DNA of 57,137 nt. Origin: a virus (taxonomy: Duplodnaviria; Caudoviricetes). The stretch covers positions 1 through 57,137 of IMG/VR virus record IMGVR_UViG_3300044718_000101; one strand, given 5' to 3'. The notes beneath the pieces were generated by a model that saw nothing but the letters and a program-made list of their open reading frames with translations, was not told the origin of the DNA and did not search any database. Shown here piece after piece: positions 8,501 to 57,137 of this stretch. Position numbers and translations under genes: made by a program. Within the stretch, counting starts at the first letter, position 1. Each line of letters begins with the position of its first letter.

Positions 8501-8744
8501 TAGAGCCAACAGCCACCCCCATCCCTGAAGCCGAAAGCGTAGAGTCAAACGACTCGGTAGCAATCTTGTAAGGCTCCGCCCCAGGCACAAACTCGTACTC
8601 GTTGACGACGGCCGTAACCGGCATCCCAAAATCGTTCGCTGCATCGCTGGTAGCCGTAATGGGCGAGAACGTGAAAACCCGCTTACATTCATGGTGCCCA
8701 ATGAACTTAAGCACAAGGGCGCGGTCGTTACCAGAGGTAGGCAT
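5577..8744 (-). CDS. Large putative tail/receptor-binding protein
   Basis: 1055 aa, beta-rich, C-terminal Asp-box-like motifs (SASLGDKW, SPDMGTTW); position in tail module. Confidence 0.6.
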   Translation of the reverse strand: MPTSGNDRALVLKFIGHHECKRVFTFSPITATSDAANDFGMPVTAVVNEYEFVPGAEPYKIATESFDSTLSASGMGVAVGSSGGYQMSGPVSGSGISGCGPRASDCPINDANGITEFYFFQLVVNLNGYGLGVITLNLDPSSGSMFGPFACEVTNPGELTLDYTVTVSIPCTEIYDDPLFTYPLTADTLGFPPTAPDFEGPVATNRAVQLVLVPGQSLTVRIEVPAIGYDQTHTYTVLALPIPDFNGYQMLTEAVMTGIFSGGSECFITPSINGVDYKVDIVKVDHQANNVWFNRIDYLTAGVSTPFHTLVFHDPATAALTRDFGIGCTAVLEGTGQVTAGATWRPPKLCRILGSIRDFGAVWLEGDLTIQYWIYDAVGIATPAEFVFSGGEADHSWTQYDYSLSSGDVLKTMGPVSCWLKDSSLSALGDDPRDRRLLSMGRKWDAIGLAFATTRDIGHHANLTGWTGTGCTVTTPGGTVVVGAATADGASAVAAFSPRVGMESHRYMKVSLSIDIGDSVPLVIGIGGKTWAITTGTAGDSADYEIDLCCPDSSSPGGSQDSRYPIANPADVHMLVGFGNPAGYPTQEGRDTGVNVLKSLSIGGIPNGSTLTVTDIHLFVKRSVKLDIVSTFLHYDFYMPYNPTTDSAYYMCKRHLLALTDGRQSLEIPDEVLRHDLSGVSGLGNDINEVCQLINTCDGWTATSLSASGPAPLNAGASAYLLGGAGATYAFNTAFYEYWIERDISAGVTIPAQELADQINAYPGMGEWGSTLAYVANDPLVFRFVKYLRGAGHGLATDSHWKPDTTDSVGIQRVSDSSDAGSGMPDAGGYFRTGFPFAFSGQSYDFIAEPGATGGLTMKQIQPFTAFNRKKSRGRIIFSGICLCETERGRLMVAAYGRDDGVHVWRFDLLGGYSSDALVIPGLVVTDLDITYLPNGSLLLAYIDSTGLHACQSASLGDKWDAAVSIAPTGTSCRTCADKRNQTAYIAVYDTTRYVLWRLLRDGTWVNVGPIVTSSEASFDLSIDPGPKRLLTFLLSGTPNRRFVSPDMGTTWSEE

Positions 8745-21006: not shown

Positions 21007-22238
21007 TATTTCACTCCAAGCGCCGACAGTCGCCGTGCGCGGTTCAGATGCTGTTGCCGCAGGTCGTTGACCTCGCGGCCAGTTGAGGGCTCGCGCTCTG
21101 CCTCTTTGGGGTTCTGAGAGAGAAGCCCTTCGAGTTCGTCGCGAATGATGGCCAGTTGTCCGCGCACCTTTTCAGATAGCGGAGAACGGCCTTGGCCCGT
21201 GCGAATGGCTTTAAGGTCATCCACCCGGGCCGTGAGCGTTGTGAGTCCCCGAACGGCAGTAAGCACCGAATCGGAGTGCTCGTCCATCGTAAGCCGAATA
21301 GGCTCGGCTACGGTGGACTGAACATCGTTTGTGTCTAGATGGGCGCGTGCACCCTTGGTCACAGCAATCTTGCCGGACTCAAGCGCCTTTAGCGCATCTT
21401 CAAAGGTTCCAACTTTATCGGCCAGTCCGACTTTTACAGCCTCTGCACCGATATATACCCGGCCATCGGCAAGCTTCTTAGCCTGGTCGAAGGACATCCC
21501 GCGTCCGCGGGCAACCGCTTTAACGAATAGCTCGCCCTTTGCATCTACCGACCTCTGCCACTCGGCGAGTTGGTCGTCGGTGATCGCAGTTCCGTTAGTG
21601 CCTGCCCCTTTGAACTCGCCGTACTTCACGACGTGGACCGTTATGCCCTGGTCGGCTGCCATTTTGCTAAAATCTGGGGCAACGAGGAACACGCCCATTG
21701 CCCCATTTGTGGCAGTCGGGTTGCACCATATTTGAGAAGCGCTTGAGCCGATCCATAGGCCGCAACTCGCACTGCAATCGCTTACATACTGCAGCACAGG
21801 CTTCTTTTGGGCAAGCTTGTACAACAAGTCCGAGAGATCAGCAGATCCCGAAACTTCACCGCCTGGCGTATCGGTCCAAAGCGCTACTTGTTTTGCCTGG
21901 TCGTCATAAAGCAGGTTCGAGACTGCTGACATTAGGTCCCGAGTGCTGGTACCCCCCATGATCCACTGCCAGAACGTCATGTTCTTGGAAAGCGGGCCAA
22001 CCATATTTAGAAGCGCCGTCCCATTCGAGTTCAGCGCATAGCCTTTATCGTCATCGGCCGGGCATGAGAACCCGTATTCGTCCGCCCATGCGTCACCTCG
22101 CCCAGACTCATAGGCAGCTTTGGCAGAAAGGATTTCTTTGAGCGTTGCATCCCGCATACGCGAGTAGTTCGTCCTGAGCCATGTTTCGCTGAGAGCGAGG
22201 AATTCGTCCTGTGGGAAAAGCTGCTGGCGTTTATTCAT
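21006..22238 (-). CDS. Prohead protease, S49 (SppA-like) family
   Basis: DTPGGEVSG, SASCGLWIGS, GEFKG, ADGRVYIG, GLADKVG motifs; between portal and capsid. Confidence 0.9.
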   Translation of the reverse strand: MNKRQQLFPQDEFLALSETWLRTNYSRMRDATLKEILSAKAAYESGRGDAWADEYGFSCPADDDKGYALNSNGTALLNMVGPLSKNMTFWQWIMGGTSTRDLMSAVSNLLYDDQAKQVALWTDTPGGEVSGSADLSDLLYKLAQKKPVLQYVSDCSASCGLWIGSSASQIWCNPTATNGAMGVFLVAPDFSKMAADQGITVHVVKYGEFKGAGTNGTAITDDQLAEWQRSVDAKGELFVKAVARGRGMSFDQAKKLADGRVYIGAEAVKVGLADKVGTFEDALKALESGKIAVTKGARAHLDTNDVQSTVAEPIRLTMDEHSDSVLTAVRGLTTLTARVDDLKAIRTGQGRSPLSEKVRGQLAIIRDELEGLLSQNPKEAEREPSTGREVNDLRQQHLNRARRLSALGVK

Positions 22239-22257
22239 GGTGATTTTGGGAGGCAAC

Positions 22258-22282
22258 AAAAAAGCCGCTTGAATGGCGGCTT
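22258..22282 (-). terminator. Putative intrinsic terminator after portal
   Basis: AAGCCGC-CATTCAA-GCGGCTT followed by a U-run on the minus strand. Confidence 0.6.
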
Positions 22283-22307
22283 GAATGACGGTGCTAAAAA
22301 TCTGTGA

Positions 22308-23672
22308 CTAGACTCTAGTCTTTGGCTTAGGCTTGACCTTCGCGGGTACTCCACCTTGAGGGTCTTCCCCATCAATCAGCGAGTCGTCGGGCGGCTCTGG
22401 GGCTGAACCTTTTGGCCAGATGATCGTATCGCCCCCTGGAAGCGGGGGATCGCCGTACATAGCTCTGAGTTCGTTCACGGTCTTGCGAGTGCTAACCATG
22501 ATCTTGTTGCGCGTTTCTTCTTCTGTCTTGTCTTCTTGCAACACTTCTACACCCGTTGTATCGAAACCCGTGGTGTACGATTCGTCAATCGTGAAGTCTG
22601 GCAATACCTGCTGATCGAGCGTCTGAGTGATAACCCTATGAAGCGACATGATGCCGCGCCGGTAGGACTGTCTTTCTTCGAATGTCGCATTGGACATCGT
22701 ATTGCGGTCAAGGCCTGCGCCCGTTTTGGCAACGCCTGGGGCTACGCCAAGTAAAGCAGGGATTCTCTCTTCAGCGGTCTTGCGCTGCTCTCTGGTCAAG
22801 AGCTTGCCCAAATCGGCGCCAACATGGTCAACCTTCATCGGAAGGTTATGAACGACCGTTCCGCCCTGTTTGCCGTGGGTGCTTTGCGCATCGATCTTCT
22901 GTTTAATCGCTTTGCGCTCGTCCTCATCGGGCCCCATGTAATCCGGATCGATCTTGAACATGGCAGGGTCGGGGCTAACCATAGTTCCGATCATCCCCAT
23001 GTTCTCACCAACTGCAGCCGAGAACATTCCCCACGCCTCATCGGTAAATATCTCGGTTCGGCCAGCTTTCAAGCGGGACAGCCCCTTGCGCGTGTTCTTC
23101 GGATCCACTCCGCGCCGGAAATGAACGATATCCTTTGGGTCAATCTCAATCGGCTTCGAAAATCCAGGCGAATACAAATAGTGGTCGATGTAAACGGAAC
23201 CGTCAGGCGGGTAAATCGGCTCCATCAGGTGATGAGGGATGTAGAGATAACCGATAACTGCGTCCAGCCCTCCGCGCAACTTGTACCAGTAAGCGTTCCC
23301 GTCGATATCGAGTCCGATGATCGTTCCTGCCCAAAGAATATCGTCGCCGTAAAGCTCATTGGGACGCTTTAGAATCTGCTGCAACCTGCGCAGCGCCGCG
23401 TTTCCATGACGGATTGGCTGAATAACCGGTTTGTCTTCCGTGGTTTGTCGATAAATCCGAAGAGGAGCCTCAGCCCAGATGTCGAACTTCCACCCGAGGC
23501 AGATCATTACGATGCTATTGCCAAGTGAATCGACAGCAGCAATCAGCGATGCAAGTTGATCGGGGCTAAGCCCGTTAAGCATCCACGAACCGCCGCCAAT
23601 ACTCCCGCGCTCTCTAGGGAATCTGAATACCCCTTTGAGAAAGGCCTTTGCGCGGTCTAAGATGTTTGGCAT
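22308..23672 (-). CDS. Portal protein, HK97 family
   Basis: RPN, DGNAYW, DIVHFR, GLS, TVNELR..G.PP..GGD motifs. Confidence 0.93.
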   Translation of the reverse strand: MPNILDRAKAFLKGVFRFPRERGSIGGGSWMLNGLSPDQLASLIAAVDSLGNSIVMICLGWKFDIWAEAPLRIYRQTTEDKPVIQPIRHGNAALRRLQQILKRPNELYGDDILWAGTIIGLDIDGNAYWYKLRGGLDAVIGYLYIPHHLMEPIYPPDGSVYIDHYLYSPGFSKPIEIDPKDIVHFRRGVDPKNTRKGLSRLKAGRTEIFTDEAWGMFSAAVGENMGMIGTMVSPDPAMFKIDPDYMGPDEDERKAIKQKIDAQSTHGKQGGTVVHNLPMKVDHVGADLGKLLTREQRKTAEERIPALLGVAPGVAKTGAGLDRNTMSNATFEERQSYRRGIMSLHRVITQTLDQQVLPDFTIDESYTTGFDTTGVEVLQEDKTEEETRNKIMVSTRKTVNELRAMYGDPPLPGGDTIIWPKGSAPEPPDDSLIDGEDPQGGVPAKVKPKPKTRV

Positions 23673-23679
23673 AGTGGTG

Positions 23680-25215
23680 TTAGCTCATTGCGTGGCGCAA
23701 CTTACGAGTTCTCTTCGGTGGCCTTAACTTAGATATGATATATCTCAAACAATCCGCGAAATGGAACTTTGCCTTGTCCCTAATTTCCTTTGTCGGCTCG
23801 AGCTGATCGTCCAAAACTCTTGAATATCGCGTGATGTTTGCCACTGTCTTCACGCAGGTATCGAAGATGATAAGGTTCCCCGACGTGAACGCCTCGTAAA
23901 CACAACCGATTTGCGTCTCCACGTCATTAACAGGCGGCTCATCGAAGGGGATACCATGCATTCGGTAGGCCTCGCGCCACCCATCTTCCTGATGTGAACC
24001 AGCCGCGCCGGGATTGATGCCATGTGGCCCAATCGCTCTGACTAACGCCTCTCTCATCCCTTGGGCGTGCTCTTTGTAGCTCTTGCTTTTCTGCGTATAC
24101 TCGGCAACGACATAGAGCGTTTCACTTACCGGATCCTTGGCGATCCAGACGCAAGCCGTGTTATTGTTTCCAAAGTCGCCACCGGGAAAGACCTTCCAAT
24201 CGATCGGGATTGCAAATGGCTTACAAATGTGCTTCTTAGTGTCGAAGCATCCGTAAATCAGACCGGCGGGGCGAGTAAAGAGCCCTTTATACATCATGTC
24301 GAACTCCCAGTCCGGCATGCCGTTTTCCTCGCGCTCTAACTCACATTCCTGCTCTGAAATGTTCGGATTGAACCAGCTAGGGAAGTTGAAGAACGCCCAC
24401 CGCTTGTCACCGCGTTTGATTGCGGTTTCGGCTTTATCGTAAACATCCGTCTTGAACCAACCCCACTCATAAGGGGTTGTTCCCCAGAAGCGGCGGCCAA
24501 ACATTCCGCCCGGCCCTTCCGCTTCGTAGTAAGTGTCCTTCCACCACTTCAGCATTTCCCTTTGGGCATCAGTGAGCGCTTCCCATGCCCGCTTGAAAGT
24601 GTAGGACCTAGCGACCTTTAACCGGCGATTGAACGCCCGGTATGAGGCTTGCTTATTCTCCTTTTGCCCCGCCTCATCCCACGCCCCGGCTAAGGCGGTC
24701 ATCGATTCAAGGTTGCTTGAATCCTGGGTATAGGCGAACGTGAATGTAACCGGACAATGATCGAATCCTAAGACCTTTCGCAGCCCCTCTTTACTGAAGA
24801 AGAACTTCGGCTTATTCCCGCCGATCAGCCGGCCAAGCTGCTCCTCTTCTTCGAATAGGTCCTTAAACGCCGGTAAAGCCTGCTCGCCCATCAGCGTGAG
24901 CGTGGGCCCGGCATAGATGAACTTACCCTCGCCGAATAGCAGTATCAGCGGGGCGCATCGCTGGACTTCTCTTAAGAGCCAAGGTGCCTCCGTTGCAGTC
25001 TTGCCTCCTTGCGTTCCTGCAACCGCGACAACCTCCATCGCATGCGAAGCCCACGCCGCACTTTGTCCTTCGTGGAACCACTCCGGAGGGAAAGAAAAAT
25101 CCGAGACTTCTTCGTTCGCCGGAGTCTTTAACTCGGCGAAGTTATCAAGCCGTTCAGCTATTCTGCGTTCGAACTTCTCCGCTAGCGAAAGTGAGCCTGA
25201 CGATTGATAAGGCAA
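23680..25215 (-). CDS. terL: Terminase large subunit
   Basis: Walker A AGTQGGKT, Walker B WDEAG, TTP coupling motif, nuclease GGDFG and HFADCLRY. Confidence 0.92.
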   Translation of the reverse strand: MPYQSSGSLSLAEKFERRIAERLDNFAELKTPANEEVSDFSFPPEWFHEGQSAAWASHAMEVVAVAGTQGGKTATEAPWLLREVQRCAPLILLFGEGKFIYAGPTLTLMGEQALPAFKDLFEEEEQLGRLIGGNKPKFFFSKEGLRKVLGFDHCPVTFTFAYTQDSSNLESMTALAGAWDEAGQKENKQASYRAFNRRLKVARSYTFKRAWEALTDAQREMLKWWKDTYYEAEGPGGMFGRRFWGTTPYEWGWFKTDVYDKAETAIKRGDKRWAFFNFPSWFNPNISEQECELEREENGMPDWEFDMMYKGLFTRPAGLIYGCFDTKKHICKPFAIPIDWKVFPGGDFGNNNTACVWIAKDPVSETLYVVAEYTQKSKSYKEHAQGMREALVRAIGPHGINPGAAGSHQEDGWREAYRMHGIPFDEPPVNDVETQIGCVYEAFTSGNLIIFDTCVKTVANITRYSRVLDDQLEPTKEIRDKAKFHFADCLRYIISKLRPPKRTRKLRHAMS

Positions 25216-32276: not shown

Positions 32277-33366
32277 TTGACCTCGTTTGTTGTTTCGGGC
32301 TTATCGCCCAAGGCTTGCGCCACTCCTCGCCTTCGAAGAAGCTCTTCATGCTCATCACGTACCGGGTGCCCGTCGTCTGGGGATTATCTCGTCCGCTAGG
32401 CGTCGAGTCGCAATAAGCCCGGTATCGGTTCACACCATCGCGGATTTCGAGCGCATCTCTGCCACGGTGAAGCGAACGCATAAACTCGGCGTTGCCCTCG
32501 ATCTCCCGCAAGTCTTCGTTTCCGCGAGACGGGTAGGTGGACTTGATCTCATTCCAGATTTCGGGCACCGGTTTAGAACAACCAGGTGGACCAGTCGCGT
32601 TTGCGGCCCCCGGCGAACAAGAAGAGACTGTAGTTTCTAATTGCTTAGAGTTAAGAGTTAAGAGTGAAGAGTATAGAGGGGGGTCGTTTTCGCGTCGATT
32701 TTCGCGATTTTCGTGACGACTTTCGGCTTTTTCGTGACGACTTTCCTTGTTGTCTGTTTGTTGCGCACTTTTCTGAGCCTCGTCAATACCCCCGGTTTCA
32801 TCGCCAGAGTCGTCACGACTTTCGGCTTTTTCGTGACGACTTTTACCGTTTGTCGTCACGTATTCCTCTATTTTCGTGACGAACTCCGCAACGTCGTTAT
32901 ATGTTTCGGGGATGCCCTTTTCAGCCGTGACGCAAATACCCTTTACCGACCTGTATTGCATCGACGGTTCCATGAATCCCGTCACCGGATGGGGGTATTG
33001 CGCCCTGATTCTGAAGTCATATTTGTAGCTCTGGTGCTTGAAGAACTTGGGAAAATACACATATTTCTTTCCACCCTGCATGTACTCTTTGATCAGTGGA
33101 ACGCCGCTATCATCAACCGCACTTTTCAAGAGGGCTATTGCCTGGGCCACTTGGTGATTTGTCGCCCTTCCAGGCACCACTTCGCGGGCCCATTTCGCCG
33201 GGCTTGCGTCATATCTGCCGTAGTGGTCAGCGTGGGACCGGCCATAGGTAAACATGAGCTCAGCGAGCACAGAAACGAACGGATCAACGTTCGTATCGGC
33301 GTCTCCCCAAAGCATCGCGAGTTGCCCGCTTACCGATGATTCGCTACTCGTTATTGTCGATCCCAT
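32134..33366 (-). CDS. Phage replication initiator (O-like)
   Basis: HADHYGR N-terminal motif, YFPKFFKHQ, repetitive linker with iterons, C-terminal YP..YC..YVM..SFF domain. Confidence 0.75.
   Translation of the reverse strand: MGSTITSSESSVSGQLAMLWGDADTNVDPFVSVLAELMFTYGRSHADHYGRYDASPAKWAREVVPGRATNHQVAQAIALLKSAVDDSGVPLIKEYMQGGKKYVYFPKFFKHQSYKYDFRIRAQYPHPVTGFMEPSMQYRSVKGICVTAEKGIPETYNDVAEFVTKIEEYVTTNGKSRHEKAESRDDSGDETGGIDEAQKSAQQTDNKESRHEKAESRHENRENRRENDPPLYSSLLTLNSKQLETTVSSCSPGAANATGPPGCSKPVPEIWNEIKSTYPSRGNEDLREIEGNAEFMRSLHRGRDALEIRDGVNRYRAYCDSTPSGRDNPQTTGTRYVMSMKSFFEGEEWRKPWAISPKQQTRSNGKRIESPTEFKQRLADERSKRDARRSGERPVRSVPGSADESAHGHG
32645..32882. repeat. Putative replication origin: iterons plus AAGAGT tandem
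   Basis: TTTTCGTGACGA four times, GTCGTCACG twice in inverted orientation, adjacent (T/G)AAGAGT repeats, all inside the initiator gene. Confidence 0.75.
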
Positions 33367-36408: not shown

Positions 36409-37400
36409 TAAATATCGTCTTCCGGCTGTCCTTCCGTCGCTTTGGCTTTAGCCACATCACCAGCGGGCGCGGCACTAGCTACAGCAGTGCCGACATGCTC
36501 CGGTTCCTCAACCGCCTCGTGGTCGATAATCTCGCCGGTCGCCCGATTCAGCGAAAGGATCTGCCCGTTCGCATGTTCGTCAACTTCGTCGGCAATCTCC
36601 GCAAGGAATGCGTCGTCCGCCTGACGTGAAACACTCGAGAGCAACAGCTTGTCGTCAGACATGTTGATAATCGGCTTCGTACGCCGCCGGGCCAACGTGC
36701 GCAGCGCGTATTCATCCGTATAGATGTCATGAGGGCTCGGCTTTTCCTTGGTGGAGTATTTGTAAGTGGGGGACTTGAGCCAACTCTTTCGAATGCGCTC
36801 CATGTCCATGATAATGCAGCCCATGTTTTCGCCCGTATCTGCATTCACGAACCCGCAGTAGCCCCCTATGATCAGGGCGCCCGTTTTTCGGGGGAATGGC
36901 TTCACGTGAGACTGAATCGTGTCAATCAGGCCATATGTGCTCGACCAAATCTTAACGATCTCAACGGGTTCACCGTCGTAAATCACATCCATGTAAGGAA
37001 CGATGTTCCCGGCCACGAGTTGGGCCACGTGGACATCCCCCCAGACCGACCGCTGACAGGTGAGTTGATTGCCGTAAACAATCCAGTAGCACTGCTTCTT
37101 CATGCAGTTGAGGGATTGAATGACGTAATCCAAAAGTGCGTTCGCCACGCTTTCAAGCGTGACTACCGAAGTGTCAATGACGCCGTTCTTCATAATCGGC
37201 TTGCTGTCTTTGTTCACAACGGTTTGCAGTTGAAGATATGCGGAGTTGAGGGCGTTGCCCGCGTCGTAGTTGGGAGGCAAAGTCAAAGCGCCCTTCTTCT
37301 GAAGGGCCTCCACCTGCTCCAAAATGCGGACGGTGATTTTCCCCTCGCTGAGGGGCTTGGTCGATAACGCGTTGTCTTTCTGTACGTTCTGAAGTGCCAT
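36408..37400 (-). CDS. recT: RecT-family single-strand annealing protein
   Basis: LPPNYDAGNAL, SVANALL, KKQCYWIVYG..L..QRS motifs; flanked by ATPase and MBL nuclease. Confidence 0.85.
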   Translation of the reverse strand: MALQNVQKDNALSTKPLSEGKITVRILEQVEALQKKGALTLPPNYDAGNALNSAYLQLQTVVNKDSKPIMKNGVIDTSVVTLESVANALLDYVIQSLNCMKKQCYWIVYGNQLTCQRSVWGDVHVAQLVAGNIVPYMDVIYDGEPVEIVKIWSSTYGLIDTIQSHVKPFPRKTGALIIGGYCGFVNADTGENMGCIIMDMERIRKSWLKSPTYKYSTKEKPSPHDIYTDEYALRTLARRRTKPIINMSDDKLLLSSVSRQADDAFLAEIADEVDEHANGQILSLNRATGEIIDHEAVEEPEHVGTAVASAAPAGDVAKAKATEGQPEDDI

Positions 37401-39454
37401 TAAAGTAAAGCCTCCTGGGCCTGTTGTTCGGTTTGGATAACGGTCGGGGCAGGCTTCTTCTCGCCTGCAGGTTGGGTCGATTTCGATGCGAACGTGATGC
37501 GCGCGGCAAGTTCCTTGCCCCGGTCAGTCGGCCTAGGAACGAAGGGCACGCCCTCCTCTGGCTTAGGCCAAGGAGCGACCACAAGCCGAATCTGCTGCGC
37601 GCGCGTCGGCAGAACGTCGGTGACCGACTCGGCGCCGTCGATAAAGATCGGCGGAGAAAAGCCGTAATGCGCGCCTAGAACGTTGATCACGTCCAGCCCC
37701 GCATTGATGCAAGCCGCATTGTTGAGTCCCTGGCCGTAAGGCACACCGCCAACGGTAGCAATGCAGCACTCCTCAATCCCGCCATTCACCAGCTCGTTAA
37801 AGAGCTTCCAGCGAACAAGCGCAAACTTGGAGTTGATGCGGTCGGTAAGAAGCTTCACCTTCTGCCGAAGGAACTCATCAAGCAGGAACAGTTGCCCCTC
37901 GATAACCTCAAACTCTTCGGCAAGCTCTTTCTCGCGGTCGGCAAGCTCTAACTTGCGGTCGATGCTTTGCTTGTTTCGGTTGACTGCCTCGATCGTCGAA
38001 AGCGTCGCCCGGTGAAGCGACCGCTTCTTGGTCAGGTCCTCGTCGAGCGTTGCAGCGGCAGCGGCCGAGTTCTCTTGCAGACCCGTAACCACCTTCTGAG
38101 CTTCAGCCTTTGCCGTGGTTAACCGCTGATACTCGGCATCGTCCGAAGGATGAACATAGCTCTCCTCGGGAATGACCACCGCGTCTAAATCGGTCCGCAG
38201 CTTTTCAAGCGAGATCTTAACCGTTTCGATCTCGGTCGTCTTAGTGGCAAGAGTCGCCGCAACCGCATCCCGCTCCTCCCTGTAGGTTTTGCCCGCAGCA
38301 AGCATCTTTTCCAAGGTGTCCGCTTTGGCCAGGTTGAAACGGGCTCTAGCCTCTTCAACATTCTCAGCGGGCAAGTCCTGTCCACAGGTCGGGCAAGCCG
38401 TCTCGCCGCCGAACTCCTTCTCCCGTTCGGCTGCGACCGCGGCTTTGGTTCTTTCTCGAACCGCGTCCATGTCGGCAACTTGACGCTCAAGGTTCCTGGC
38501 CGAGGCTTCCAAAACATTCAGCTCGATCTCGGCAAGCTTAACTTCCTGGGTTAGCTGCTGCTGACGGCTAAGCGCCTCAGTCCGGGCCGGGTTGACCCCG
38601 CCGCTCTGAAGTTCATTGGCCCGCGCATGCATCTTGCCCTGAAGCTCCAAAAACTTATTCCGCGCCTCAGCAACAGCACCGCCAGAGCTAAGGTTTGCCT
38701 TCTGGCTTTCAAGGTCAGCTATCGCAGCGGCCAACGTTTCCGCGTCCGCCTCATAGTTGCCGGCGGGAATATCGGCCATGCCTCTATCGCACTCGGCAAT
38801 CCGGACCGGAATCTCCTTAAGTTCGCCGTTGATCTTGTCCTTCGTGCCCTTCGCGATCTTCCGGTAGTCGTCGATGCTTCGGTCTTCCAGAAAGTTCCGA
38901 ATAGGCGAAAGCGCCCGGGACGAGGAAATCACGTCCGACTCGGAAACGTCCCCGCAAATCTCAAGCAGCAGCCGGCGACGGTCCTCCCACTTCATCCGGG
39001 AAATCACGTGCGCGGGGTCGGTCAGTTCCTGGAACCGCTTCGCCGAACAAACATTCTCAACCTGCCGGTCAAACTCCAGTTTCTGAACGGGAACGCCGTT
39101 GACGAAGTAATCGGTCGTGTGTTTCGTGAAGGTCTTCGTAGCCTCGCCCTTCTTCCTCTCCCACACCTCCTTGTAAACCTTCTTAAGGGTCAGCGTCCGC
39201 CCGTCAACATCATAAACACCCTCGACGCAGTGCTCAAGGTTGTGAAGGGGCTGATTGTCCTTGTCCAGGGTCTTGATGCCGAACTCGGCAGCGCCAAGCG
39301 AATCCTTACCGGTAAGTAGCCAGAACTCCGAGTCCGCTAACGTTGTTTTGCCGACGCTATTATCAGCAACGACGCAAGCATCAGAGCCGTTGGGCTTGAA
39401 CTCGAAGGATTTGATTCCCTTGAAGTTGGAAAGCGCGAGCGAGAGTAATCTCAT
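37400..39454 (-). CDS. SMC/SbcC-like ATPase (AAA_23) with coiled coil and zinc hook
   Basis: NFKGIK, NSVGKTT Walker A, CPTCGQ hook, IFIDGAES Walker B. Confidence 0.9.
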   Translation of the reverse strand: MRLLSLALSNFKGIKSFEFKPNGSDACVVADNSVGKTTLADSEFWLLTGKDSLGAAEFGIKTLDKDNQPLHNLEHCVEGVYDVDGRTLTLKKVYKEVWERKKGEATKTFTKHTTDYFVNGVPVQKLEFDRQVENVCSAKRFQELTDPAHVISRMKWEDRRRLLLEICGDVSESDVISSSRALSPIRNFLEDRSIDDYRKIAKGTKDKINGELKEIPVRIAECDRGMADIPAGNYEADAETLAAAIADLESQKANLSSGGAVAEARNKFLELQGKMHARANELQSGGVNPARTEALSRQQQLTQEVKLAEIELNVLEASARNLERQVADMDAVRERTKAAVAAEREKEFGGETACPTCGQDLPAENVEEARARFNLAKADTLEKMLAAGKTYREERDAVAATLATKTTEIETVKISLEKLRTDLDAVVIPEESYVHPSDDAEYQRLTTAKAEAQKVVTGLQENSAAAAATLDEDLTKKRSLHRATLSTIEAVNRNKQSIDRKLELADREKELAEEFEVIEGQLFLLDEFLRQKVKLLTDRINSKFALVRWKLFNELVNGGIEECCIATVGGVPYGQGLNNAACINAGLDVINVLGAHYGFSPPIFIDGAESVTDVLPTRAQQIRLVVAPWPKPEEGVPFVPRPTDRGKELAARITFASKSTQPAGEKKPAPTVIQTEQQAQEALL

Positions 39455-46070: not shown

Positions 46071-48791
46071 TTGACCCAACCGGCACCAGCAATGAAGGAC
46101 CTCCCAGCTGCGGGGGTCTACGCGTCAGCCGAACTCGCCAGCTATCGAAAGTTCTTGCAGGACAAGGTACAGGTAGCCCCGTCCTTCGGCGTAGAATGCG
46201 ACCTGTCAGACGTCAACCCCCTCATGCGGCCGCATGCGGCCGCACTGTCGGTTTGGTCGACCAGGGGCGGTCGGCGTGGCATCTTCCCGTCTTTCGGACT
46301 TCACAAAACCACGATCCAGCTAGAAACCGTGCGGATCACGCTCGACAAGACTGAGCAGCCGAACGGGCTTATAATCCTTCCCCTCGGCGTCCGGCAAGAG
46401 TTTATTCGTGACGCCCACATGCTCCGCACCGGTGACAACCCATTCATCACCGATCAGCAGCGCGAGTGTCACGAGGAATGGACCGCCGGAAGGCCGGACC
46501 GAACCCCGGCGCCACGCTTTATCAGAACCACCGCCGAGATTGATGAGCCCGGTATCTACCTAACCAACTATGAATCGGTCCGGCTACACAAGATCGATAT
46601 CGGAAGGTTCGCCGCCGTTAGTCTAGATGAAGGAGATATCCTTCGCGGCTGCTTCTCAGGCTCCAAAACCTACGGGGAGTTTAAGGACCTCTTTGAAGGG
46701 ACCAGCATTCACCGCTGGGTAGCAACCGCAACCCCGAGCCCTCAAGAATATCACGAGCTGCTGGTCTACGCCCAGTTCCTTGGCATCATGGACATCGGCG
46801 AAGCGCGGACCCGCTTCTTCCAGCGTAACAGTCAGAAAGCGCACAGCCTCACGCTTCTACCGCATATGGAGGAAGAGTTCTGGATTTGGGTCAACTCATG
46901 GGCCGCGTTCGTGCTCAGGCCTTCAAACCTCGGCTTTTCCGACGATGGTTATATCCTTCCCGATTTGGAAGTCCACTGGCACGAGGTTCCAACCGATCAT
47001 ACCACCGCGGTAGCGAACGAGCGCGGACAAGGCAAGTTGATCAAGGACGTAACCGTCGGCGTCACCAGTGCTGCAAAGGAAAAGCAATCATCCCTAGATA
47101 CGCGCCTCCAAAAGCTGCTGGAGCTTCGAGAACTGGATCCGGATGCACACCGCATCATTTATCACGATCTCGAAAACGAAAGACGAGCCCTTGAGAAATC
47201 AATACCGGGTCTTGCCACCATTTACGGGAGTCAAGACCTTGACGACCGCGAAAAGATCAGTATCGACTTTTCCAATGGCGAAGTAAGCGAACTCGGCGGA
47301 AAGCCTAGCATGGTGGGCGCCGGCTGTAACTATCAAAGGTTCTGCCATTGGGCCATATTCATGGGGGTCGGATTCAAGTTCCGCGACTTCTTCCAGGCCA
47401 TCCACCGCATCCAACGCTTCGGCCAACCCCATCGATGTCGAATCGACATCATCTTTACCGAGGCCGAAGTCTCGATCAAAGAAGAACTCGAAAGGCGTTG
47501 GGCACAGCACACCACCATGGTTGAGCGCATGGCCGGCATTATCGAGCAGTACGGCCTAGATGGCGAAGGAATGCTCGAGCGGCTAACTCAGTCCATAGGA
47601 GTTGAGCGCGAAGAGTGGATCGGCGAGTTTGGCCACCTCGTTTACAACGACACTATCGAAGAAACGATGTCGATGGAAGACGACTCAGTGGACCTCATCG
47701 CCGGTTCCCCTCCATTCTCGAATCAATATCGATACTCGGCCAGCTATAACGACCTAGGCCACAACCCAAACATCAAGCTCTTTTTCGAGCAGCTTGGATA
47801 TCTCACCCGCCATTCGCTCCGCGTCCTTAAACCCGGCCGCTTCATGGCGATCCATATAAAGGACCGAATCCGCCACGGCAACATGACCGGCCTCTCATTC
47901 CCGACAATCGATCCGTTCCACTGCTACTACCTCGAACACGCCAAAGAGTGCGGATTCGAATATTGCGGCATGGTCACTATTGGGACCGACGTTGTTAGAG
48001 AGAACAATCAAACCTACCGGCTCAGCTACTCAAAGATGCTGAAGGACTCGACCACAACCGCGGTCGGCATGCCCGAATACGCAATGCTTTTCCGCAAGCC
48101 ACAAACTGATCTCAGCCGTGGCTTTGCCGATGAAAGGGTTAGGAAGAACGCCGAAGAATATCTCCTTGCCCAATGGCAGATTGACGCAAACGGCGTTTGG
48201 CTATCCAGCGGCGACCGCCTGGCGCTTCCGGAGGAAGCCAAGGGGTTAAGGCGCAAAGATGCTTACCGCCTGTGGAAGAAGTATTGCCTGGCGAACCCCT
48301 ACGACTATGAGAAGCACGTCGCGTTCGCATCGCTCTTGCAGCTAACCAAGACCCCGGGCGGCGGAAGCATCCTCCCCAAAGACTTCGCCCTCTTGCCGGT
48401 CCATGCAAAAAGCCCATGGATTTGGACCGACGTTTTCCGCGCCGGCACCCTTAACTCGGCACTCTCGCAAAAGAGGGTGGAAAAGCATGTCTGCCCCATG
48501 CAGTTCGACATTATCGACCGGCTAATCGAAAAGCTCACCAACCCCGGAGAACTGGTCTTCGATCCCTGGGGCGGAGTCGGCACAACCGTCGTTCGCTCAA
48601 ACAAACTCGGCCGTCGTGGCCGCTCGCACGAACTCAACCACTACTACTGGCGAGAATCCGTCAAGTTCGCCAAAGCCCAGGAAGAAAAGATGCGCGTTCC
48701 ATCGCTATTCGACCTGATCGAACTCGAAGCCCTCGCAGCGCAATCCGACGACTATGAAGCCGACGATGATGCCCTGGAGGAATCCGCCTAA
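46071..48791 (+). CDS. SNF2-like helicase fused to an N4/N6 DNA methyltransferase
   Basis: FGLHKT, TNYE, LDEG, ATATPSP, QAIHRIQRFGQ; MTase SPPF, HVCPMQ, VFDPWGGVGT. Confidence 0.88.
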   Translation: MTQPAPAMKDLPAAGVYASAELASYRKFLQDKVQVAPSFGVECDLSDVNPLMRPHAAALSVWSTRGGRRGIFPSFGLHKTTIQLETVRITLDKTEQPNGLIILPLGVRQEFIRDAHMLRTGDNPFITDQQRECHEEWTAGRPDRTPAPRFIRTTAEIDEPGIYLTNYESVRLHKIDIGRFAAVSLDEGDILRGCFSGSKTYGEFKDLFEGTSIHRWVATATPSPQEYHELLVYAQFLGIMDIGEARTRFFQRNSQKAHSLTLLPHMEEEFWIWVNSWAAFVLRPSNLGFSDDGYILPDLEVHWHEVPTDHTTAVANERGQGKLIKDVTVGVTSAAKEKQSSLDTRLQKLLELRELDPDAHRIIYHDLENERRALEKSIPGLATIYGSQDLDDREKISIDFSNGEVSELGGKPSMVGAGCNYQRFCHWAIFMGVGFKFRDFFQAIHRIQRFGQPHRCRIDIIFTEAEVSIKEELERRWAQHTTMVERMAGIIEQYGLDGEGMLERLTQSIGVEREEWIGEFGHLVYNDTIEETMSMEDDSVDLIAGSPPFSNQYRYSASYNDLGHNPNIKLFFEQLGYLTRHSLRVLKPGRFMAIHIKDRIRHGNMTGLSFPTIDPFHCYYLEHAKECGFEYCGMVTIGTDVVRENNQTYRLSYSKMLKDSTTTAVGMPEYAMLFRKPQTDLSRGFADERVRKNAEEYLLAQWQIDANGVWLSSGDRLALPEEAKGLRRKDAYRLWKKYCLANPYDYEKHVAFASLLQLTKTPGGGSILPKDFALLPVHAKSPWIWTDVFRAGTLNSALSQKRVEKHVCPMQFDIIDRLIEKLTNPGELVFDPWGGVGTTVVRSNKLGRRGRSHELNHYYWRESVKFAKAQEEKMRVPSLFDLIELEALAAQSDDYEADDDALEESA

Positions 48792-52645: not shown

Positions 52646-53418
52646 AAATCATCAGCCTCGGCGCGGGCGTTCAGTCGTCCGCGATGCTCTTGATGGCATT
52701 AGAGGGAAGGTTTGGAGATAAGCCGGATTGCGCCATATTTGCAGATGCTCAGTGGGAACCGAAGGCAGTCTATGAGTGGCTTAGACGACTTGAGGCCGAA
52801 GTCTCGCCCTTTCCGATCTACCGTGTGACGAACGGCAACATCCGCGAGAAGGCCCGCTACGACACATCGGGTACTCGGTTCATCGTCATCCCAACGTTTG
52901 TAAAGAACGAATCAGGCGGGACCGGAATGTCTCCAAGGCAGTGCACCAAGGAGTTCAAGATCATTCCTATTCAAAGGAAGGTTCGGCAACTGGTAGGGCC
53001 GAAAGGCAGAGCACAATCCTGGATCGGCATAAGCACCGATGAAGCGATGCGGATGAAGCCGTCGCATCTCAAATGGTTGGTGAATCGCTGGCCCTTGATT
53101 GAAGCGAATCTGAGCCGCTACGACTGTGAGCAATACCTCCTGAAGCGGATGGGCGACGTCGCTCCAAAGTCGAGTTGCATTGGGTGCCCGTTCCACGGAG
53201 ACGATCACTGGCAGAGGATGAAATCCCAAGAGCCTGCCGAGTTCGCCGATGCTTGCGAGTTCGATAAGCAGATCCGCACTTTTCCGAACATGCGAGGCGA
53301 GAAGTTTCTACACCGTTCGTGCCGCCCGTTAGACCAGATCGAGTTCCTTCACGAAAAGCAGGGCCGCATGTTTCGTGACGCGTTCGGCAACGAGTGCGAA
53401 GGATTGTGCGGAGTATGA
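52642..53418 (+). CDS. PAPS-reductase-like (PP-loop) phage protein
   Basis: ISLGAGVQSS, AIFAD..WEP, RQCTKEFKI.PI, WIGISTDE, PKSSCIGCPFH, ECEGLCGV. Confidence 0.8.
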   Translation: MKIISLGAGVQSSAMLLMALEGRFGDKPDCAIFADAQWEPKAVYEWLRRLEAEVSPFPIYRVTNGNIREKARYDTSGTRFIVIPTFVKNESGGTGMSPRQCTKEFKIIPIQRKVRQLVGPKGRAQSWIGISTDEAMRMKPSHLKWLVNRWPLIEANLSRYDCEQYLLKRMGDVAPKSSCIGCPFHGDDHWQRMKSQEPAEFADACEFDKQIRTFPNMRGEKFLHRSCRPLDQIEFLHEKQGRMFRDAFGNECEGLCGV

Positions 53419-53963
53419 CCCCCACCGAAACGCAGAGAGCCGTCTTCTCAGACTGCCGCACCTACCGCTACGAACTGTGGCGGGTCTGGGATGAAAGCCT
53501 CCCCTACGTCGCATTCATCGGCCTAAACCCAAGCACCGCAGACGAAACCAAAGATGACCCCACGATCCGCAAGTGCCGCCACTTCGCCAAGGCCTGGGGC
53601 TACGGCGGGTTCGTCATGCTCAACCTATTCCCGTTTCGCGCAACCGATCCGCGAGAGCTGAAGAAGGCAAAGCAACCTTATGGAGAACTGTATATGCCTA
53701 GGGGTGGTGTCTATTGGTGGAGCAACACTAAGCGCATTGTAGAGCACGTAAGAGCGTCGGGCCTCATCGTAGCCGCATGGGGCGTTGATGGCGCGCACAG
53801 AAACAAGGCTTGGAATCTAATGAACTTCTTGACTCAGCATAGTATGGGTCCACGCATCCACTGCCTAGGCACCAACAATGACGGCTCGCCAAAGCACCCG
53901 CTGTACCTAGCGAACGAGACAAAGCCCGTCCCCTATGGTGAGGCTTGGAGGAAAGGGGCGTGA
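53415..53963 (+). CDS. DUF1643 family protein
   Basis: YRYELWRVW, FIGLNPSTAD..DDPTIR, NLF..RATDP, AAWG, PKHPLY. Confidence 0.92.
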   Translation: MTPTETQRAVFSDCRTYRYELWRVWDESLPYVAFIGLNPSTADETKDDPTIRKCRHFAKAWGYGGFVMLNLFPFRATDPRELKKAKQPYGELYMPRGGVYWWSNTKRIVEHVRASGLIVAAWGVDGAHRNKAWNLMNFLTQHSMGPRIHCLGTNNDGSPKHPLYLANETKPVPYGEAWRKGA

Positions 53964-54149: not shown

Positions 54150-54506
54150 ATGCAATCCAGGCGCTACACCGATATGGAGCTACTAGCCAAAGCAGTCCTA
54201 GAACTGGCAGTATCGCAGCGACTTCCCGCGGCAACCTCTTTGAGCAGGCAGGACGCCATAAGACATATCGGCTGCTCAGAGCGTGCCTTCAAACATTACG
54301 AAGCAAAGGGCTATATTAAAGAGCTTGAGGGCGGCATATTCTCGGTCGAGCATTTGGACGGGCTAGTCGAGAAACTGAAAAAAGACTCTGAAAAGGTGAT
54401 AGATTTAACAAATGGCCAGATGGCACAAAGCGAGCAGCAGGTACATAGCGGAAAAACGAATCACACTCCCAAACGGGGAGAAGTTGCGTCCGTGCTGCTA
54501 CGGTGA
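54150..54506 (+). CDS. Putative excisionase (MerR-like HTH)
   Basis: LSRQDAIRHIGCSERAF..YEAKGYI; overlaps the integrase 5' end. Confidence 0.6.
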   Translation: MQSRRYTDMELLAKAVLELAVSQRLPAATSLSRQDAIRHIGCSERAFKHYEAKGYIKELEGGIFSVEHLDGLVEKLKKDSEKVIDLTNGQMAQSEQQVHSGKTNHTPKRGEVASVLLR

Positions 54507-55695
54507 AACCGCAGAAGAAGCCGACCAGCTTCTAGCCGATCACATCGAATCAATCTTCAGGCCTTTTAACGAATACGCCTTCGGAAGCTACGCCGCCCGG
54601 GCCTACATCCCGCTGCATGAAAACGACAGTTTCAAGAACCGAGAGCAAATCGCATGGGCCCTCGACACCCATATCCTTCCCGACTGGGGTTCACGCGATA
54701 TCAGGACCATCGAACGGACCGAGCTCCAACGCTGGGTTAATCGCAAACTAGACGCCGGACGTATCGGCGGAGGCACCCTCTCAAAAGGGAGTGTCACGCA
54801 CCTCAGAAAGGTGATAAGCGCCATCATGGATCTCGCTGAAGAAGATGGCATCATCGACAAAAACCCGGTCCGCAAAGTCAAGGTCATCACCCCCAAGCAA
54901 ACATCATCCCTAATCGCTGGGCCTGTTGCACAAAAGGAAGTCACCTACACGTCGGAGCAGCTTGTCAGGTACCTCGACTTCGCGCTAAGGCAAGAAAAGA
55001 TGATGGGGCTTATGATGGCGCCTATTATCTTCATGGAAGGATGGTGCGGACTTCGAAGGGGGGAAGCCCTAGGAACAAGAAGGCCGTTCATCACCAAAGA
55101 CAACGTGATTCAAGTCTTCTGGCAAGCTCAAAAACAAAAGCGGCCGTGGCCAGAAAAGAAACCGATCGGAAAGCGAAAGAAGAAACCCATCTGGGAATAC
55201 TTCATCGATATTATCGAGGTCAAGAGCACTGCAGGCCGGCGAACGATCCCACTCCCAGAGATCGGGGCAAGGATGCTAAGAGCCGTCGACTGGTGGGCGG
55301 CAAACGTAGAGTCTGACTCGGTGCTATTCTGCCCAAACTCCACCGGAGGCCTCCAAGACCCAGACAACGTAAACCGCGCACTGGAATCGCTAACGCAGCG
55401 CTATAACGACTCGCTAGAGTTCAACAACTCCCTTAGCGAAGCCGAGAGGGAAGAACTAAGGCTCCCAAAGATCGGAACGCACGGCCTAAGACGCAGTTTC
55501 GCCACCAACCTCGCCGAACTGGGATGCCCCGAAGAATTCCGGAATGCGCTACTTGGCCACGGCAAAAAGAACATGGCCCAGGAATACAACAAGATCCGCG
55601 AACTAACAAAGCTCAAATGGCTGGAAGCGCTTCACGAACCATTGAAGGTGCTTGTGGCAAGCGACTCGAAACCAAACGTCGCGAAAGCCGAGTAG
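54412..55695 (+). CDS. int: Tyrosine recombinase/phage integrase
   Basis: GLRRGE (R), VKS (K), HGLRRS (HxxR), LLGH, QEY (Y). Confidence 0.95.
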   Translation: MARWHKASSRYIAEKRITLPNGEKLRPCCYGETAEEADQLLADHIESIFRPFNEYAFGSYAARAYIPLHENDSFKNREQIAWALDTHILPDWGSRDIRTIERTELQRWVNRKLDAGRIGGGTLSKGSVTHLRKVISAIMDLAEEDGIIDKNPVRKVKVITPKQTSSLIAGPVAQKEVTYTSEQLVRYLDFALRQEKMMGLMMAPIIFMEGWCGLRRGEALGTRRPFITKDNVIQVFWQAQKQKRPWPEKKPIGKRKKKPIWEYFIDIIEVKSTAGRRTIPLPEIGARMLRAVDWWAANVESDSVLFCPNSTGGLQDPDNVNRALESLTQRYNDSLEFNNSLSEAEREELRLPKIGTHGLRRSFATNLAELGCPEEFRNALLGHGKKNMAQEYNKIRELTKLKWLEALHEPLKVLVASDSKPNVAKAE

Positions 55696-55705
55696 TAGAC
55701 GCTCA

Positions 55706-55724
55706 ACCGCCGTTCAATGGCGGT
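55706..55724. terminator. Hairpin between int and the tRNA
   Basis: ACCGCC-GTTCAAT-GGCGGT between convergent transcripts; no clear U-tract. Confidence 0.35.
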
Positions 55725-55786
55725 AACACTCCAGGGAGTAAACGGGCTTTCAAGCCAAAAAGGCCTGGTTTTGAACCTAAATAAAG

Positions 55787-55862
55787 TGGTGGAGACAACG
55801 GGGCTCGAACCCGTGACCTCCTGCATGCCATGCAGGCGCTCTCCCAGCTGAGCTATATCCCC
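55787..55862 (-). tRNA. tRNA-Ala (GGC); prophage attachment site
   Basis: 76-nt cloverleaf GGGGATATAGCTCAG..TGGCA..TTCGAGC..CTCCACCA; G3-U70 alanine determinant; encoded CCA. Confidence 0.97.
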
Positions 55863-55877
55863 ACTGATCGCGAGGTA

Positions 55878-55883
55878 ATTATA
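55878..55883 (-). promoter_or_regulatory. -10 box of the tRNA promoter
   Basis: TATAAT 15 nt upstream of the tRNA 5' end. Confidence 0.55.
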
Positions 55884-55892
55884 CACGTAGCC

Positions 55893-56147
55893 ATCGCTTA
55901 TTTCCTTTATGTCTTGCGAAGCGAGAAAACAGGTCGCTTTTACGTGGGTTCGACGGCGAACCTAACAGACAGGCTCTTGAGACACAACTCTGGCCGAAGC
56001 CTATCAACAAAGGGCGGGATTCCATGGACGCTTTGCTACGAAGAGGAATATGCGACGCGCTCCGAAGCCGTCGTCCGTGAGCTCGAGATCAAGAAATGGA
56101 AAAGCTCAAAGATGATTGAGGACCTTTCTGGGAGAGCGTCCCGATGA
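55893..56147 (+). CDS. Small GIY-YIG nuclease (UPF0213/SLX1-like); start codon uncertain
   Basis: YFLYVL.S....FYVGST.NL..RL..HN.G...ST....PW..E......A..RE..IK; ATC where ATG is expected. Confidence 0.85.
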   Translation: MAYFLYVLRSEKTGRFYVGSTANLTDRLLRHNSGRSLSTKGGIPWTLCYEEEYATRSEAVVRELEIKKWKSSKMIEDLSGRASR

Positions 56148-56290
56148 ATCGGGAAGGTCACGGGGCAGTTTATCCCGACTTGTCGGGAAGCCCCGTTGTC
56201 TCCACCACTTTTTGAGAAACGTCCCGGTGATTCGGGAAGGTCAGGGGGCAGCTTGTGCCGATTTATCAGGGAGCCCGATTGTCTCCACCA
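56128..56290 (+). repeat. Two tandem ~83-bp tRNA-Ala-derived repeats carrying TCCCGA..TCGGGA palindromes
   Basis: Copy 1 56128-56207, copy 2 ~56214-56290; both end TTGTCTCCACCA; inverted relative to the tRNA gene. Confidence 0.9.
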
Positions 56291-56303
56291 CTATTCGAGA
56301 GCA

Positions 56304-57137
56304 TCACCGAGGTGGCTGTAGCGACAGCCTTGGAATCTTAACCCAAGTGTAAGGTCGGGTCTGGAGTTCTATACGCGACAGATTCCTTCCTGATGTGAAA
56401 AGCCCGAGGGTAGAGCATCCATCTCCATACGAGTTCCAGAGCTTTCCATCCTTGTCGTAGCCCACGAAACGAAAGGCTTCACGCTCGGTCATGTCCAAAA
56501 GCCGCTTCGGGATAGTGACTCGGAATTGACCGTATCTGATCTCAGCGGTAGGTTCAGAATCAGTCAAAACGTAGTGACTCTTTGTTGCCTGGGCCTTATA
56601 AACGCAACGCGCCTGCCAGGGGCCTTGCGAGTAACCGAAATATAAGTCCGCAAACCGGACAGTAGGTGCCGTCCTCGCCATCCCTGTCACAAGGGTCGAA
56701 TAGGTCCTGTTGTTTTCATTTTCGTTGATCTCATCGGAGAGGCCGCTGTTTTCCAGCATTGGAATCTCCGCGAAGCGGACCGTCTCGCTCGGATATGACT
56801 CCATCTTGTAGAACTGCCGGTATCGGAAGCCATCCACCTGGATACTGAACTCGCGGTTCGCGTTACCATGGAAACGGCCTTGGTCAACTCTTGACTTGTG
56901 GGTTCGCTTTCCATTTGCCGTCCAAGTACGGCCAGTCTTAACATCTTCAACCAGCACCGTAAGGACTAACCCGTTCCCGATCGAACTATGCAAACCGGAT
57001 ACAGTTAGGCTGGACTGTGGCACAGGCATGAGAGGGTGCAACGCCTGCCCTCGCGCTACGGCTAACACAGTTGCAAACAGCCCTCCAACTGCGATTAAGG
57101 CTCTGGCCTGAATCTCGATCCCTAGGGGTCTACTCAT
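56304..57137 (-). CDS. Host hypothetical exported protein
   Basis: 277-aa ORF with hydrophobic N-terminus; outside the prophage. Confidence 0.6.
   Translation of the reverse strand: MSRPLGIEIQARALIAVGGLFATVLAVARGQALHPLMPVPQSSLTVSGLHSSIGNGLVLTVLVEDVKTGRTWTANGKRTHKSRVDQGRFHGNANREFSIQVDGFRYRQFYKMESYPSETVRFAEIPMLENSGLSDEINENENNRTYSTLVTGMARTAPTVRFADLYFGYSQGPWQARCVYKAQATKSHYVLTDSEPTAEIRYGQFRVTIPKRLLDMTEREAFRFVGYDKDGKLWNSYGDGCSTLGLFTSGRNLSRIELQTRPYTWVKIPRLSLQPPR

Follow-up and report, generated by a model that had tools for sequence, protein, structure and literature searches.

The window examined here is the whole of IMG/VR virus record IMGVR_UViG_3300044718_000101 (Duplodnaviria; Caudoviricetes), 57,137 nucleotides (nt) in length. 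Near its right end lies a small GIY-YIG nuclease gene that continues in frame into a partial copy of the adjacent tRNA gene, in which the anticodon arm and part of the T loop are replaced by DNA hairpins. This anatomy recurs at many tRNA isotypes and in many phyla, and we regard the window copy as very probably one member of a family of tRNA-gene cassettes. Each cassette is an open reading frame (ORF) and nothing more, encoding a single-domain GIY-YIG protein of ~85 amino acids (aa) without a promoter, stop codon or terminator of its own. We read the family as a class of tRNA-resident GIY-YIG genes, each paired with a hairpin-substituted tRNA copy, in which a hairpin-guided nuclease would act together with recombinational duplication; the probability that we assign to this reading is roughly 0.6. 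The reading draws on the anatomy of the units and its recurrence, on one locus that is polymorphic for presence and absence, on tandem arrays, on breakpoints that fall in tRNA loops, on borrowed stop codons and on the co-occurrence of gene and palindrome.

The sole tRNA detected in the window by ARAGORN and Rfam is an intact tRNA-Ala(GGC) on the minus strand (55787-55862; Rfam RF00005, 62.9 bits). On the plus strand, repeat unit 1 contains three exact matches to it, arranged in tRNA order: an 11-nt D-loop/D-stem block (56128-56138, tRNA positions 16-26) that also encodes the last residues of the ORF, a 10-nt variable-loop/T-stem block (56155-56164, positions 44-53), and a 19-nt block comprising the end of the T loop, the T stem, the 3' strand of the acceptor and CCA (56189-56207, positions 58-76). 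Hairpin 1 (56139-56154), the 16-nt palindrome TCCCGA TGAA TCGGGA, folds as a 6-bp stem and stands in place of the canonical anticodon arm (positions 27-43, 17 nt). The T-loop TTCG (positions 54-57) is replaced by a 24-nt insert (56165-56188) ending in hairpin 2 (56173-56188), TCCCGA CTTG TCGGGA, a palindrome that also folds. Identity to tRNA-Ala(GGC) continues for 4 nt beyond CCA and forms a 23-nt perfect inverted repeat with 55783-55805. Unit 2 (56220-56300, plus strand) is a decayed tandem copy spaced 83 nt from unit 1 and 83% identical to it. Of its two hairpins, the first (56222-56237) is imperfect and the second is lost; a 12-nt exact match to tRNA positions 65-76 survives at 56279-56290. 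The fold z-score was -2.9 for unit 1 and 0.2 for unit 2 with its decayed second hairpin.

An initial annotation of this DNA, made from the sequence alone, had described three identical tRNA blocks on the strand opposite the tRNA and overlapping the GIY-YIG stop codon, TCCCGA hairpins swapped for the anticodon arm and the T-loop TTCG, and a decayed copy 83 bp further on. All of these were confirmed at the coordinates given above, and the exact, ordered blocks bear out its proposal that the repeats were copied from the adjacent tRNA. A third repeat start that it suspected at 56297 is weak and amounts to the final bases of the unit 2 repeat alignment.

The window derives from a metagenome-derived provirus record, a source in which chance similarity or an assembly artefact might be suspected. 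The window has two occurrences of TCCCGA-N2-8-TCGGGA where 0.04 would be expected, and none of 100 shuffled sequences reached two. These counts and the ordered 11-, 10- and 19-nt blocks argue against chance. Assembly error, which the initial annotation had named as a possible undoing of its own proposal, is contradicted by the same architecture in complete chromosomes and in dozens of independent assemblies, and we consider the probability of either explanation negligible. Sequencing runs contained small shares only of this DNA: their contigs spanned the tRNA and, in a single run of soil DNA, 151 nt of the ORF, and no contig extended over the repeat units.

The nuclease gene (55884-56147, plus strand) encodes 87 aa plus a stop codon and was assigned to Pfam PF01541 with an E value of 8e-14 (52.1 bits versus a cut-off of 22.6), one domain spanning nearly the whole protein. 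Residues Y9, Y20, R30, H34 and E66 are of catalytic type and invariant across 18 relatives, the window protein included; we take them to be the catalytic positions on the model of I-TevI. The closest solved relatives were the uncharacterized UPF0213 proteins 1zg2 and 1ywl, followed by SLX1. No family in NCBIfam, PHROGs or PADLOC matched the nuclease above its cut-off (the NCBIfam group I intron endonuclease model reached 22.7 bits versus a cut-off of 56), and the 87-aa single-domain protein has no separate DNA-binding domain beside the catalytic one. The ORF traverses the first tRNA block, and its TGA stop (56145-56147) sits in the loop of hairpin 1. At the usual start position of the family, the window gene reads ATC (55893); the sole canonical in-frame start is an ATG at 55830, which lies within the tRNA gene on its antisense strand (ORF 55830-56147). 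Scans for sigma-70 promoters and terminators across 55600-56500 found none.

Recurrence was assessed at 98 loci, namely 17 from a scan of one genome per species, 80 from a metagenome scan that used a 5-sequence alignment as its query, and the window. The 17 loci came from Bacteroidales, Cytophagales, Marinilabiliaceae, Ignavibacteria, Chthoniobacterales, Planctomycetales, Patescibacteria and a Pelagibacteraceae genome. An intact tRNA was present within 400 nt at 74 of the 98 loci, on the same strand in 72 of those 74 and at a median gap of 41 nt. When only the 61 loci having at least 400 nt on both sides were counted, 53 had an intact tRNA nearby. At loci without a detectable tRNA, the contig frequently ended there or partial copies alone were present. 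A strict hairpin signature (a perfect GC-rich hairpin with the variable-loop-like NGRTY immediately after it, outside real tRNAs) was found no more than 200 nt from the ORF ends at 48 of the 98 loci; its density was 1.94 per kilobase (kb) near the ORF versus 0.13 per kb at distances greater than 500 nt. In an independent set consisting of the best match per genome (n = 30), 25 loci had a tRNA and 13 the strict hairpin.

Identity between the copies and the local tRNA breaks off at about position 26-28 and restarts at about position 44-46, with the hairpin between. Two layouts were distinguished. In layout A, the intact tRNA is followed by a spacer, the ORF, and then a copy that opens in the D loop, takes in the remainder of the tRNA as far as its 3' end and continues through the spacer. 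In layout B, a copy extends from position 1 via the hairpin to about the T loop, and beyond it come the ORF, the spacer and, last, the intact tRNA. The ORF and the hairpin are all that elements at different tRNA isotypes have in common. The initial annotation had proposed that nuclease, palindrome and tRNA copy belong together, and had suggested testing whether the 3' flanks of close homologs hold TCCCGA-hairpin repeats that match the locally adjacent tRNA. The combination does recur across many isotypes and phyla, and partial copies of the local tRNA with a GC-rich hairpin are common among the 98 loci; its nuclease-plus-palindrome element tied to tRNA genes is supported in outline. At one locus (L028), a small GIY-YIG gene lies 135 nt downstream of a tRNA-Gly(GCC) with no visible hairpin-bearing copy, and this gene may represent a third subtype. 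A scan of viral contigs with the nuclease alignment returned 4 weak partial hits only; the family is chromosomal and almost absent from viral contigs.

With two exceptions, the first base of a downstream copy corresponds to one of tRNA positions 11-19, which places the start in the D stem or loop, 10-17 nt ahead of the hairpin. Upstream copies start at position 1 and extend 10-17 nt past the hairpin, as far as the T arm. Some distant relatives differ in that the D loop carries the hairpin and the junction with the ORF falls in the anticodon loop. T loops often carry an insert directly after TTC, either a palindrome or two tandem 4-bp mini-hairpins. Most breakpoints and inserts are thus located in one of the three loops of the tRNA or at the base of an arm. 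The mini-hairpin form of the T-loop cassette, seen at L015/L040, L036, L045, L168, L173 and L176, has two hairpins, each with a 4-bp stem and a 3-nt loop, and measures 22-23 nt in total; its architecture is conserved and its sequence is not.

A fixed rule for hairpin insertion was considered and rejected. In one genome, 5 nt were replaced by an 18-nt palindrome in four cases, but once the replaced bases lay partly in a stem, and elsewhere whole arms were swapped, so no single insertion rule applies. The spacer, which usually holds the terminator of the tRNA, is duplicated behind the copy. At four loci (L087, L089, L109 and L003), the upstream copy keeps the anticodon arm, starts at about position 28 and lacks the acceptor and D arm, and at L087 the two spacers differ; simple duplication models fail to explain the copies at these loci.

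Stop codons were supplied by the tRNA copy in a recurrent manner. Among 40 loci with a downstream hairpin, 17 ORFs use a TAG of the D arm located exactly 4 nt before the hairpin, 11 (the window among them) end within the hairpin loop, 10 end elsewhere before the hairpin and 2 after it. An ORF that ends inside the copy, as at 28 of these 40 loci, might also be expected if the hairpin-bearing copies acted chiefly as RNA, whether as a structured 3' or 5' untranslated region that stabilizes or terminates the mRNA, as a tRNA mimic or as a decoy. Duplication of the tRNA terminator behind the copy and the retention of stems where loops are replaced are in keeping with such a role. A weak hint in the same direction is a 260-nt contig from a soil RNA library, belonging to another organism, which joins a piece of tRNA-Ala, a TCCCGA...TCGGGA hairpin and a second piece of tRNA-Ala, and which DNA carry-over could also account for. 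Set against this, the copies lack either the 5' strand of the acceptor or the whole T arm, and the Rfam tRNA model did not match the window copies at E values up to 10 (a search of 55600-56500 returned the true tRNA and two sub-threshold chance hits only). Arrays of copies exist without the gene, the palindrome is also found in unrelated repeats, and a role as RNA leaves mobility, arrays and the link to a nuclease unexplained. We therefore judge a primarily RNA-based function to be improbable.

Evidence for mobility came from a tRNA-Gly(CCC)/tRNA-Val(UAC) locus compared across one family (25 genomes). Fifteen genomes had the tRNA with its terminator and nothing else, 4 had the ORF with a hairpin copy (one of them in three units), and 6 had copies or remnants without an ORF. 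The element is thus polymorphic for presence and absence at a fixed target locus, as homing endonuclease genes are. Tandem arrays were observed in other genomes, with 8 units at a period of 343 nt, 5 units at 382 nt and at least 14 units at ~299 nt, and some array copies carry internal stop codons. On the tree of the proteins, isotype and hairpin class are alike in closely related members: isotype changed 28 times versus a shuffle mean of 40.1 and hairpin class 15 times versus 20.0, with none of 500 shuffles as low, although near-copies inflate this clustering. The many isotype changes that remain on the tree imply frequent switching between tRNAs. We hold that the unit is probably a selfish, insertional cassette.

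The initial annotation had also named absence of the palindrome from the rest of the genome as a finding that would speak against it. At E ≤ 1e-15, equivalent to about 58 bits (paralogues resembling the Ssn nucleases discussed below score 39-51 bits), the nuclease family was present in 105 of 201 genomes of one phylum. The palindrome was dispersed and over-represented in carriers, with a median of 14 copies in the 105 carriers versus 3 in the 96 non-carriers (Mann-Whitney p = 2.7e-12, uncorrected for relatedness); the median for a control pattern was 1 in carriers and non-carriers alike. Of five carrier genomes examined, four contained 42, 17, 11 and 7 copies of the palindrome versus 0-1 of the control. 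Copies were found in nuclease-free arrays of hairpin-bearing tRNA copies, at terminator-like sites and in other repeat families, in one of which an 18-nt palindrome replaces 5 nt of a palindrome-free copy. In one genome the nuclease family went undetected at E ≤ 1e-15 even though TCCCGA...TCGGGA is present 239 times (control, 3), which means that a different enzyme disperses the palindrome in that genome or that its nuclease gene escaped the search.

So high a prevalence would also suit a domesticated host system, in which nuclease and hairpin sites limit recombination or transformation or guard tRNA genes, and the copies are targets placed for that purpose; a function of this kind has been proposed for SsnA and NTS in Neisseria. 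The published nuclease SsnA modulates natural transformation via its NTS repeats, according to the sections of that report consulted (PMC11893778), and the window copy lies exactly at the tRNA that a prophage used for integration. The pattern of gain and decay is difficult to reconcile with such a system: presence, absence and remnants at one locus, arrays, pseudogenized copies and a decayed copy in the window. Moreover, PADLOC gave no match, and the prophage integrated despite the element. A host function appears unlikely to us, though less so than a role as RNA.

The class of hairpin-guided, tRNA-resident nuclease genes proposed here could operate as follows. By analogy with SsnA, the protein is a putative hairpin-recognizing nuclease of single-stranded DNA. 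Cleavage would take place close to the hairpin or, where tRNA-gene DNA has folded in single-stranded form, within its loops. Such breaks may be repaired via recombination between the tRNA and its partial copy, leading to duplication and amplification of the unit in the manner of SegB in T-even phages, and homology to the tRNA would let the unit enter empty tRNA loci. A long duplication would keep the tRNA intact while supplying a stop codon and terminator, and in layout B a promoter as well. Hairpin swaps in the spare copy may be the putative sites of the nuclease, or may protect the copy from cutting. We lean slightly toward the hairpin as the site of the nuclease, and hold break-induced recombinational duplication more tentatively, at somewhat short of even odds. 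The nick-primed template switching favored by the initial annotation is one of several mechanisms compatible with the anatomy.

Several observations weigh against this interpretation. The strict hairpin signature failed at 50 of the 98 loci and at 17 of the 30 in the independent set; some of these loci show a tRNA copy by eye, and distant relatives differ. Hairpin sequences vary widely (TCCCGA, CTCCGA, GTCGCC, TGGCGCC and others), which means that a cognate site requires co-evolution of nuclease and hairpin, checked here by clustering on the tree only; with 78 columns behind it, that tree has poor resolution. Non-carriers can also be rich in the palindrome: 18 of the 96 had at least 10 copies (the genome with 239 among them), and most of the 42 palindromes of one carrier genome were in other repeat families or terminator-like. 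No strain-level gain event was caught among the genomes compared. Three routes account equally well for the duplicated spacer: a long staggered-cut duplication, the integration of a one-unit circle through a single crossover, and unequal exchange. The window copy itself is unusual: its tRNA lies on the opposite strand, as at only 2 of the 74 tRNA-adjacent loci, it has no canonical start at the usual place, and unit 2 is decayed. This copy is probably inactive or rearranged and in decay, with a deletion or inversion beside the prophage junction being possible.

The record covers a provirus only, and the prophage occupies the window to the left of tRNA-Ala(GGC), with terminase, portal and major head genes at 19.7-25.2 kb. 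Its tyrosine integrase (54412-55695, plus strand; Pfam Phage_integrase and Phage_int_M) lies outside the element. The 3' end of the tRNA points toward this integrase and its 5' end is 21 nt from the region of GIY-YIG homology. The integrase end of the prophage faces the 3' end of tRNA-Ala(GGC), and the element therefore sits in host DNA beyond the prophage attachment site. The prophage is integrated in tRNA-Ala(GGC), and the nuclease gene and repeats are adjoining host DNA. A search of the whole window found no second copy of the 3' end of tRNA-Ala(GGC), and hence the other attachment site of the prophage was not found.

With an integrase and prophage abutting the tRNA, and with partial tRNA duplicates being a common product of integration (PMC9897764, in the parts consulted), the copies could be read as ordinary remnants of integrase attachment (att) sites. 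They lie, however, on the side of the tRNA away from the prophage and on the opposite strand; being inverted relative to the tRNA and outside the prophage, they are not direct repeats bounding an integrase-bearing island. They also begin in the D loop, carry hairpin swaps and repeat every 83 nt, the window holds no other copy of the tRNA 3' end, and elsewhere units of ~300 nt occur with a GIY-YIG ORF only and no integrase. An origin as att remnants is accordingly very improbable.

Other features of the window were noted in passing. Prophage matches were located at 19693-25215, 37400-39454, 46071-48791 and 53394-53963, the terminase large subunit, portal and major head protein among them. The prophage also encodes an SbcC-like/recombinase protein, a helicase with methyltransferase-like matches and a DUF1643 protein, and two of its ORFs of ~900-1050 aa (5577-8744 and 9431-12100) had no PHROG match. 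Four direct repeats of ~43 nt with a common TTTTCGTGACGACTTT core at 32681-32886 may be iterons or a regulatory array. No relative of the prophage integrase was found in a scan of viral contigs. On the minus strand, a 277-aa ORF (56304-57137) extends to the end of the window, and its stop codon abuts the end of repeat unit 2; it had no match in Pfam, PHROG or PADLOC and none above cut-off in NCBIfam.

If the interpretation of these cassettes as mobile elements is correct, they would constitute a minimal selfish element. Tiny GIY-YIG nucleases were recently found paired with hairpin repeats, and to this pairing the cassettes would add tRNA genes as a new class of target. The element would be carried by roughly half of the species sampled in one large phylum, and it would occur in several other phyla. 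It would account for many 'pseudo-tRNA' or tRNA-fragment calls and for many unnamed 'GIY-YIG nuclease family protein' genes in Bacteroidota, Verrucomicrobiota, Planctomycetota, Patescibacteria and other groups. The family would offer a natural series of nuclease-hairpin pairs, perhaps useful as site-specific cutters of single-stranded DNA. It would also make testable how breaks made by a nuclease give rise to arrays of tandem genes in the chromosomes of bacteria, the counterpart of what SegB brings about in phages.

The closest known system is Ssn, a single-domain GIY-YIG nuclease (CDD cd10448) that binds its NTS hairpin repeat solely as single-stranded DNA and cuts a few nt upstream; ssn genes are flanked by NTS repeats (Chenal et al. 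2025, PMC11893778, as described in the sections consulted). The two share a single-domain GIY-YIG protein of ~90 aa (87 aa here) and GC-rich hairpin repeats, both beside the gene and dispersed, with more in carriers. The NTS core TCCCGCG...CGCGGGA also resembles the TCCCGC...GCGGGA and TCCCGA...TCGGGA palindromes found here. The systems differ in other respects. Only here does a hairpin replace arms or loops of a partial tRNA copy, with the ORF fused into that copy, and the word 'tRNA' has 0 occurrences in the main text of PMC11893778. One branch (SH-aLRT 91, from 78 columns) parts 87 tRNA-type rows from 5 Ssn-like paralogues with NTS-like repeats, and the window protein is 29% identical to an Ssn-like paralogue. 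Its best PDB relatives are named UPF0213. As a separate observation, six Ssn-like GIY-YIG paralogues in five carrier genomes (L019-L022, L031 and L034) have the motif TNDLxRRxxEH and are flanked by GTCATTCC...GGAATC hairpin repeats; no tRNA was found near these six. With repeats resembling the published NTS, these GTCATTCC-flanked genes look like members of the Ssn family.

A second precedent is SegB of T-even phages, a free-standing GIY-YIG homing endonuclease that cleaves inside tRNA genes at a motif, RAWTSGAAC, matching the T-loop coding sequence. SegB drives the tandem amplification, dependent on recombination, of a unit composed of a tRNA and a segB gene whose C-terminus is cut short at the tRNA junction (PMC13096335, 2026, in the portions consulted). 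As in the cassettes, a GIY-YIG gene lies among tRNA genes, and its amplification parallels the arrays and in-frame junctions seen here. SegB differs in being a longer phage enzyme that makes double-strand breaks and cleaves double-stranded DNA in vitro, and those portions of PMC13096335 describe neither hairpin cassettes nor chimeric tRNA copies for it.

The REP/BIME-RAYT and IS200/IS605 systems resemble the cassettes, judging from partial accounts, in combining a small nuclease gene with spreading short palindromes that are recognized as single-stranded hairpins. As far as those accounts extend, RAYT and IS200/IS605 proteins are HUH/Y1 transposases that form covalent intermediates and use no tRNA scaffold, as opposed to the hydrolytic GIY-YIG domain here, which by Pfam is the sole protein of the element. 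Duplicated att sites are alike in placing a partial tRNA copy beside an intact tRNA. In the parts of PMC9897764 consulted, such copies bound a large integrase-bearing island and show no hairpin swaps; the units here measure 73-380 nt, have their start or their end within a loop of the tRNA, and flank at most an 85-aa nuclease ORF.

The initial annotation had known of no record of such an architecture. This stands for the tRNA-chimeric form, as full-text literature searches turned up no account of any GIY-YIG gene that is joined to a tRNA copy with hairpin substitutions, and falls for the broader design, for which Ssn/NTS and SegB are close precedents. Two kinds are known, namely small GIY-YIG nucleases that have cognate hairpin repeats and nucleases of the homing type that reside at tRNA genes; the tRNA-chimeric form is widespread and, as far as searched, undescribed. 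In its most complete version, which we put at slightly under an even chance, our proposal is of an undescribed but very common mobile element, made of an ~85-aa GIY-YIG ORF and short hairpin cassettes, that would parasitize tRNA genes. It would cut in their single-stranded loops, spare the tRNA by duplicating part of its gene, borrow its promoter, stop codon and terminator, swap loops of the spare copy for recognition hairpins and form arrays. Such an element would be the chromosomal counterpart of SegB and a tRNA-targeted sister of Ssn/NTS.

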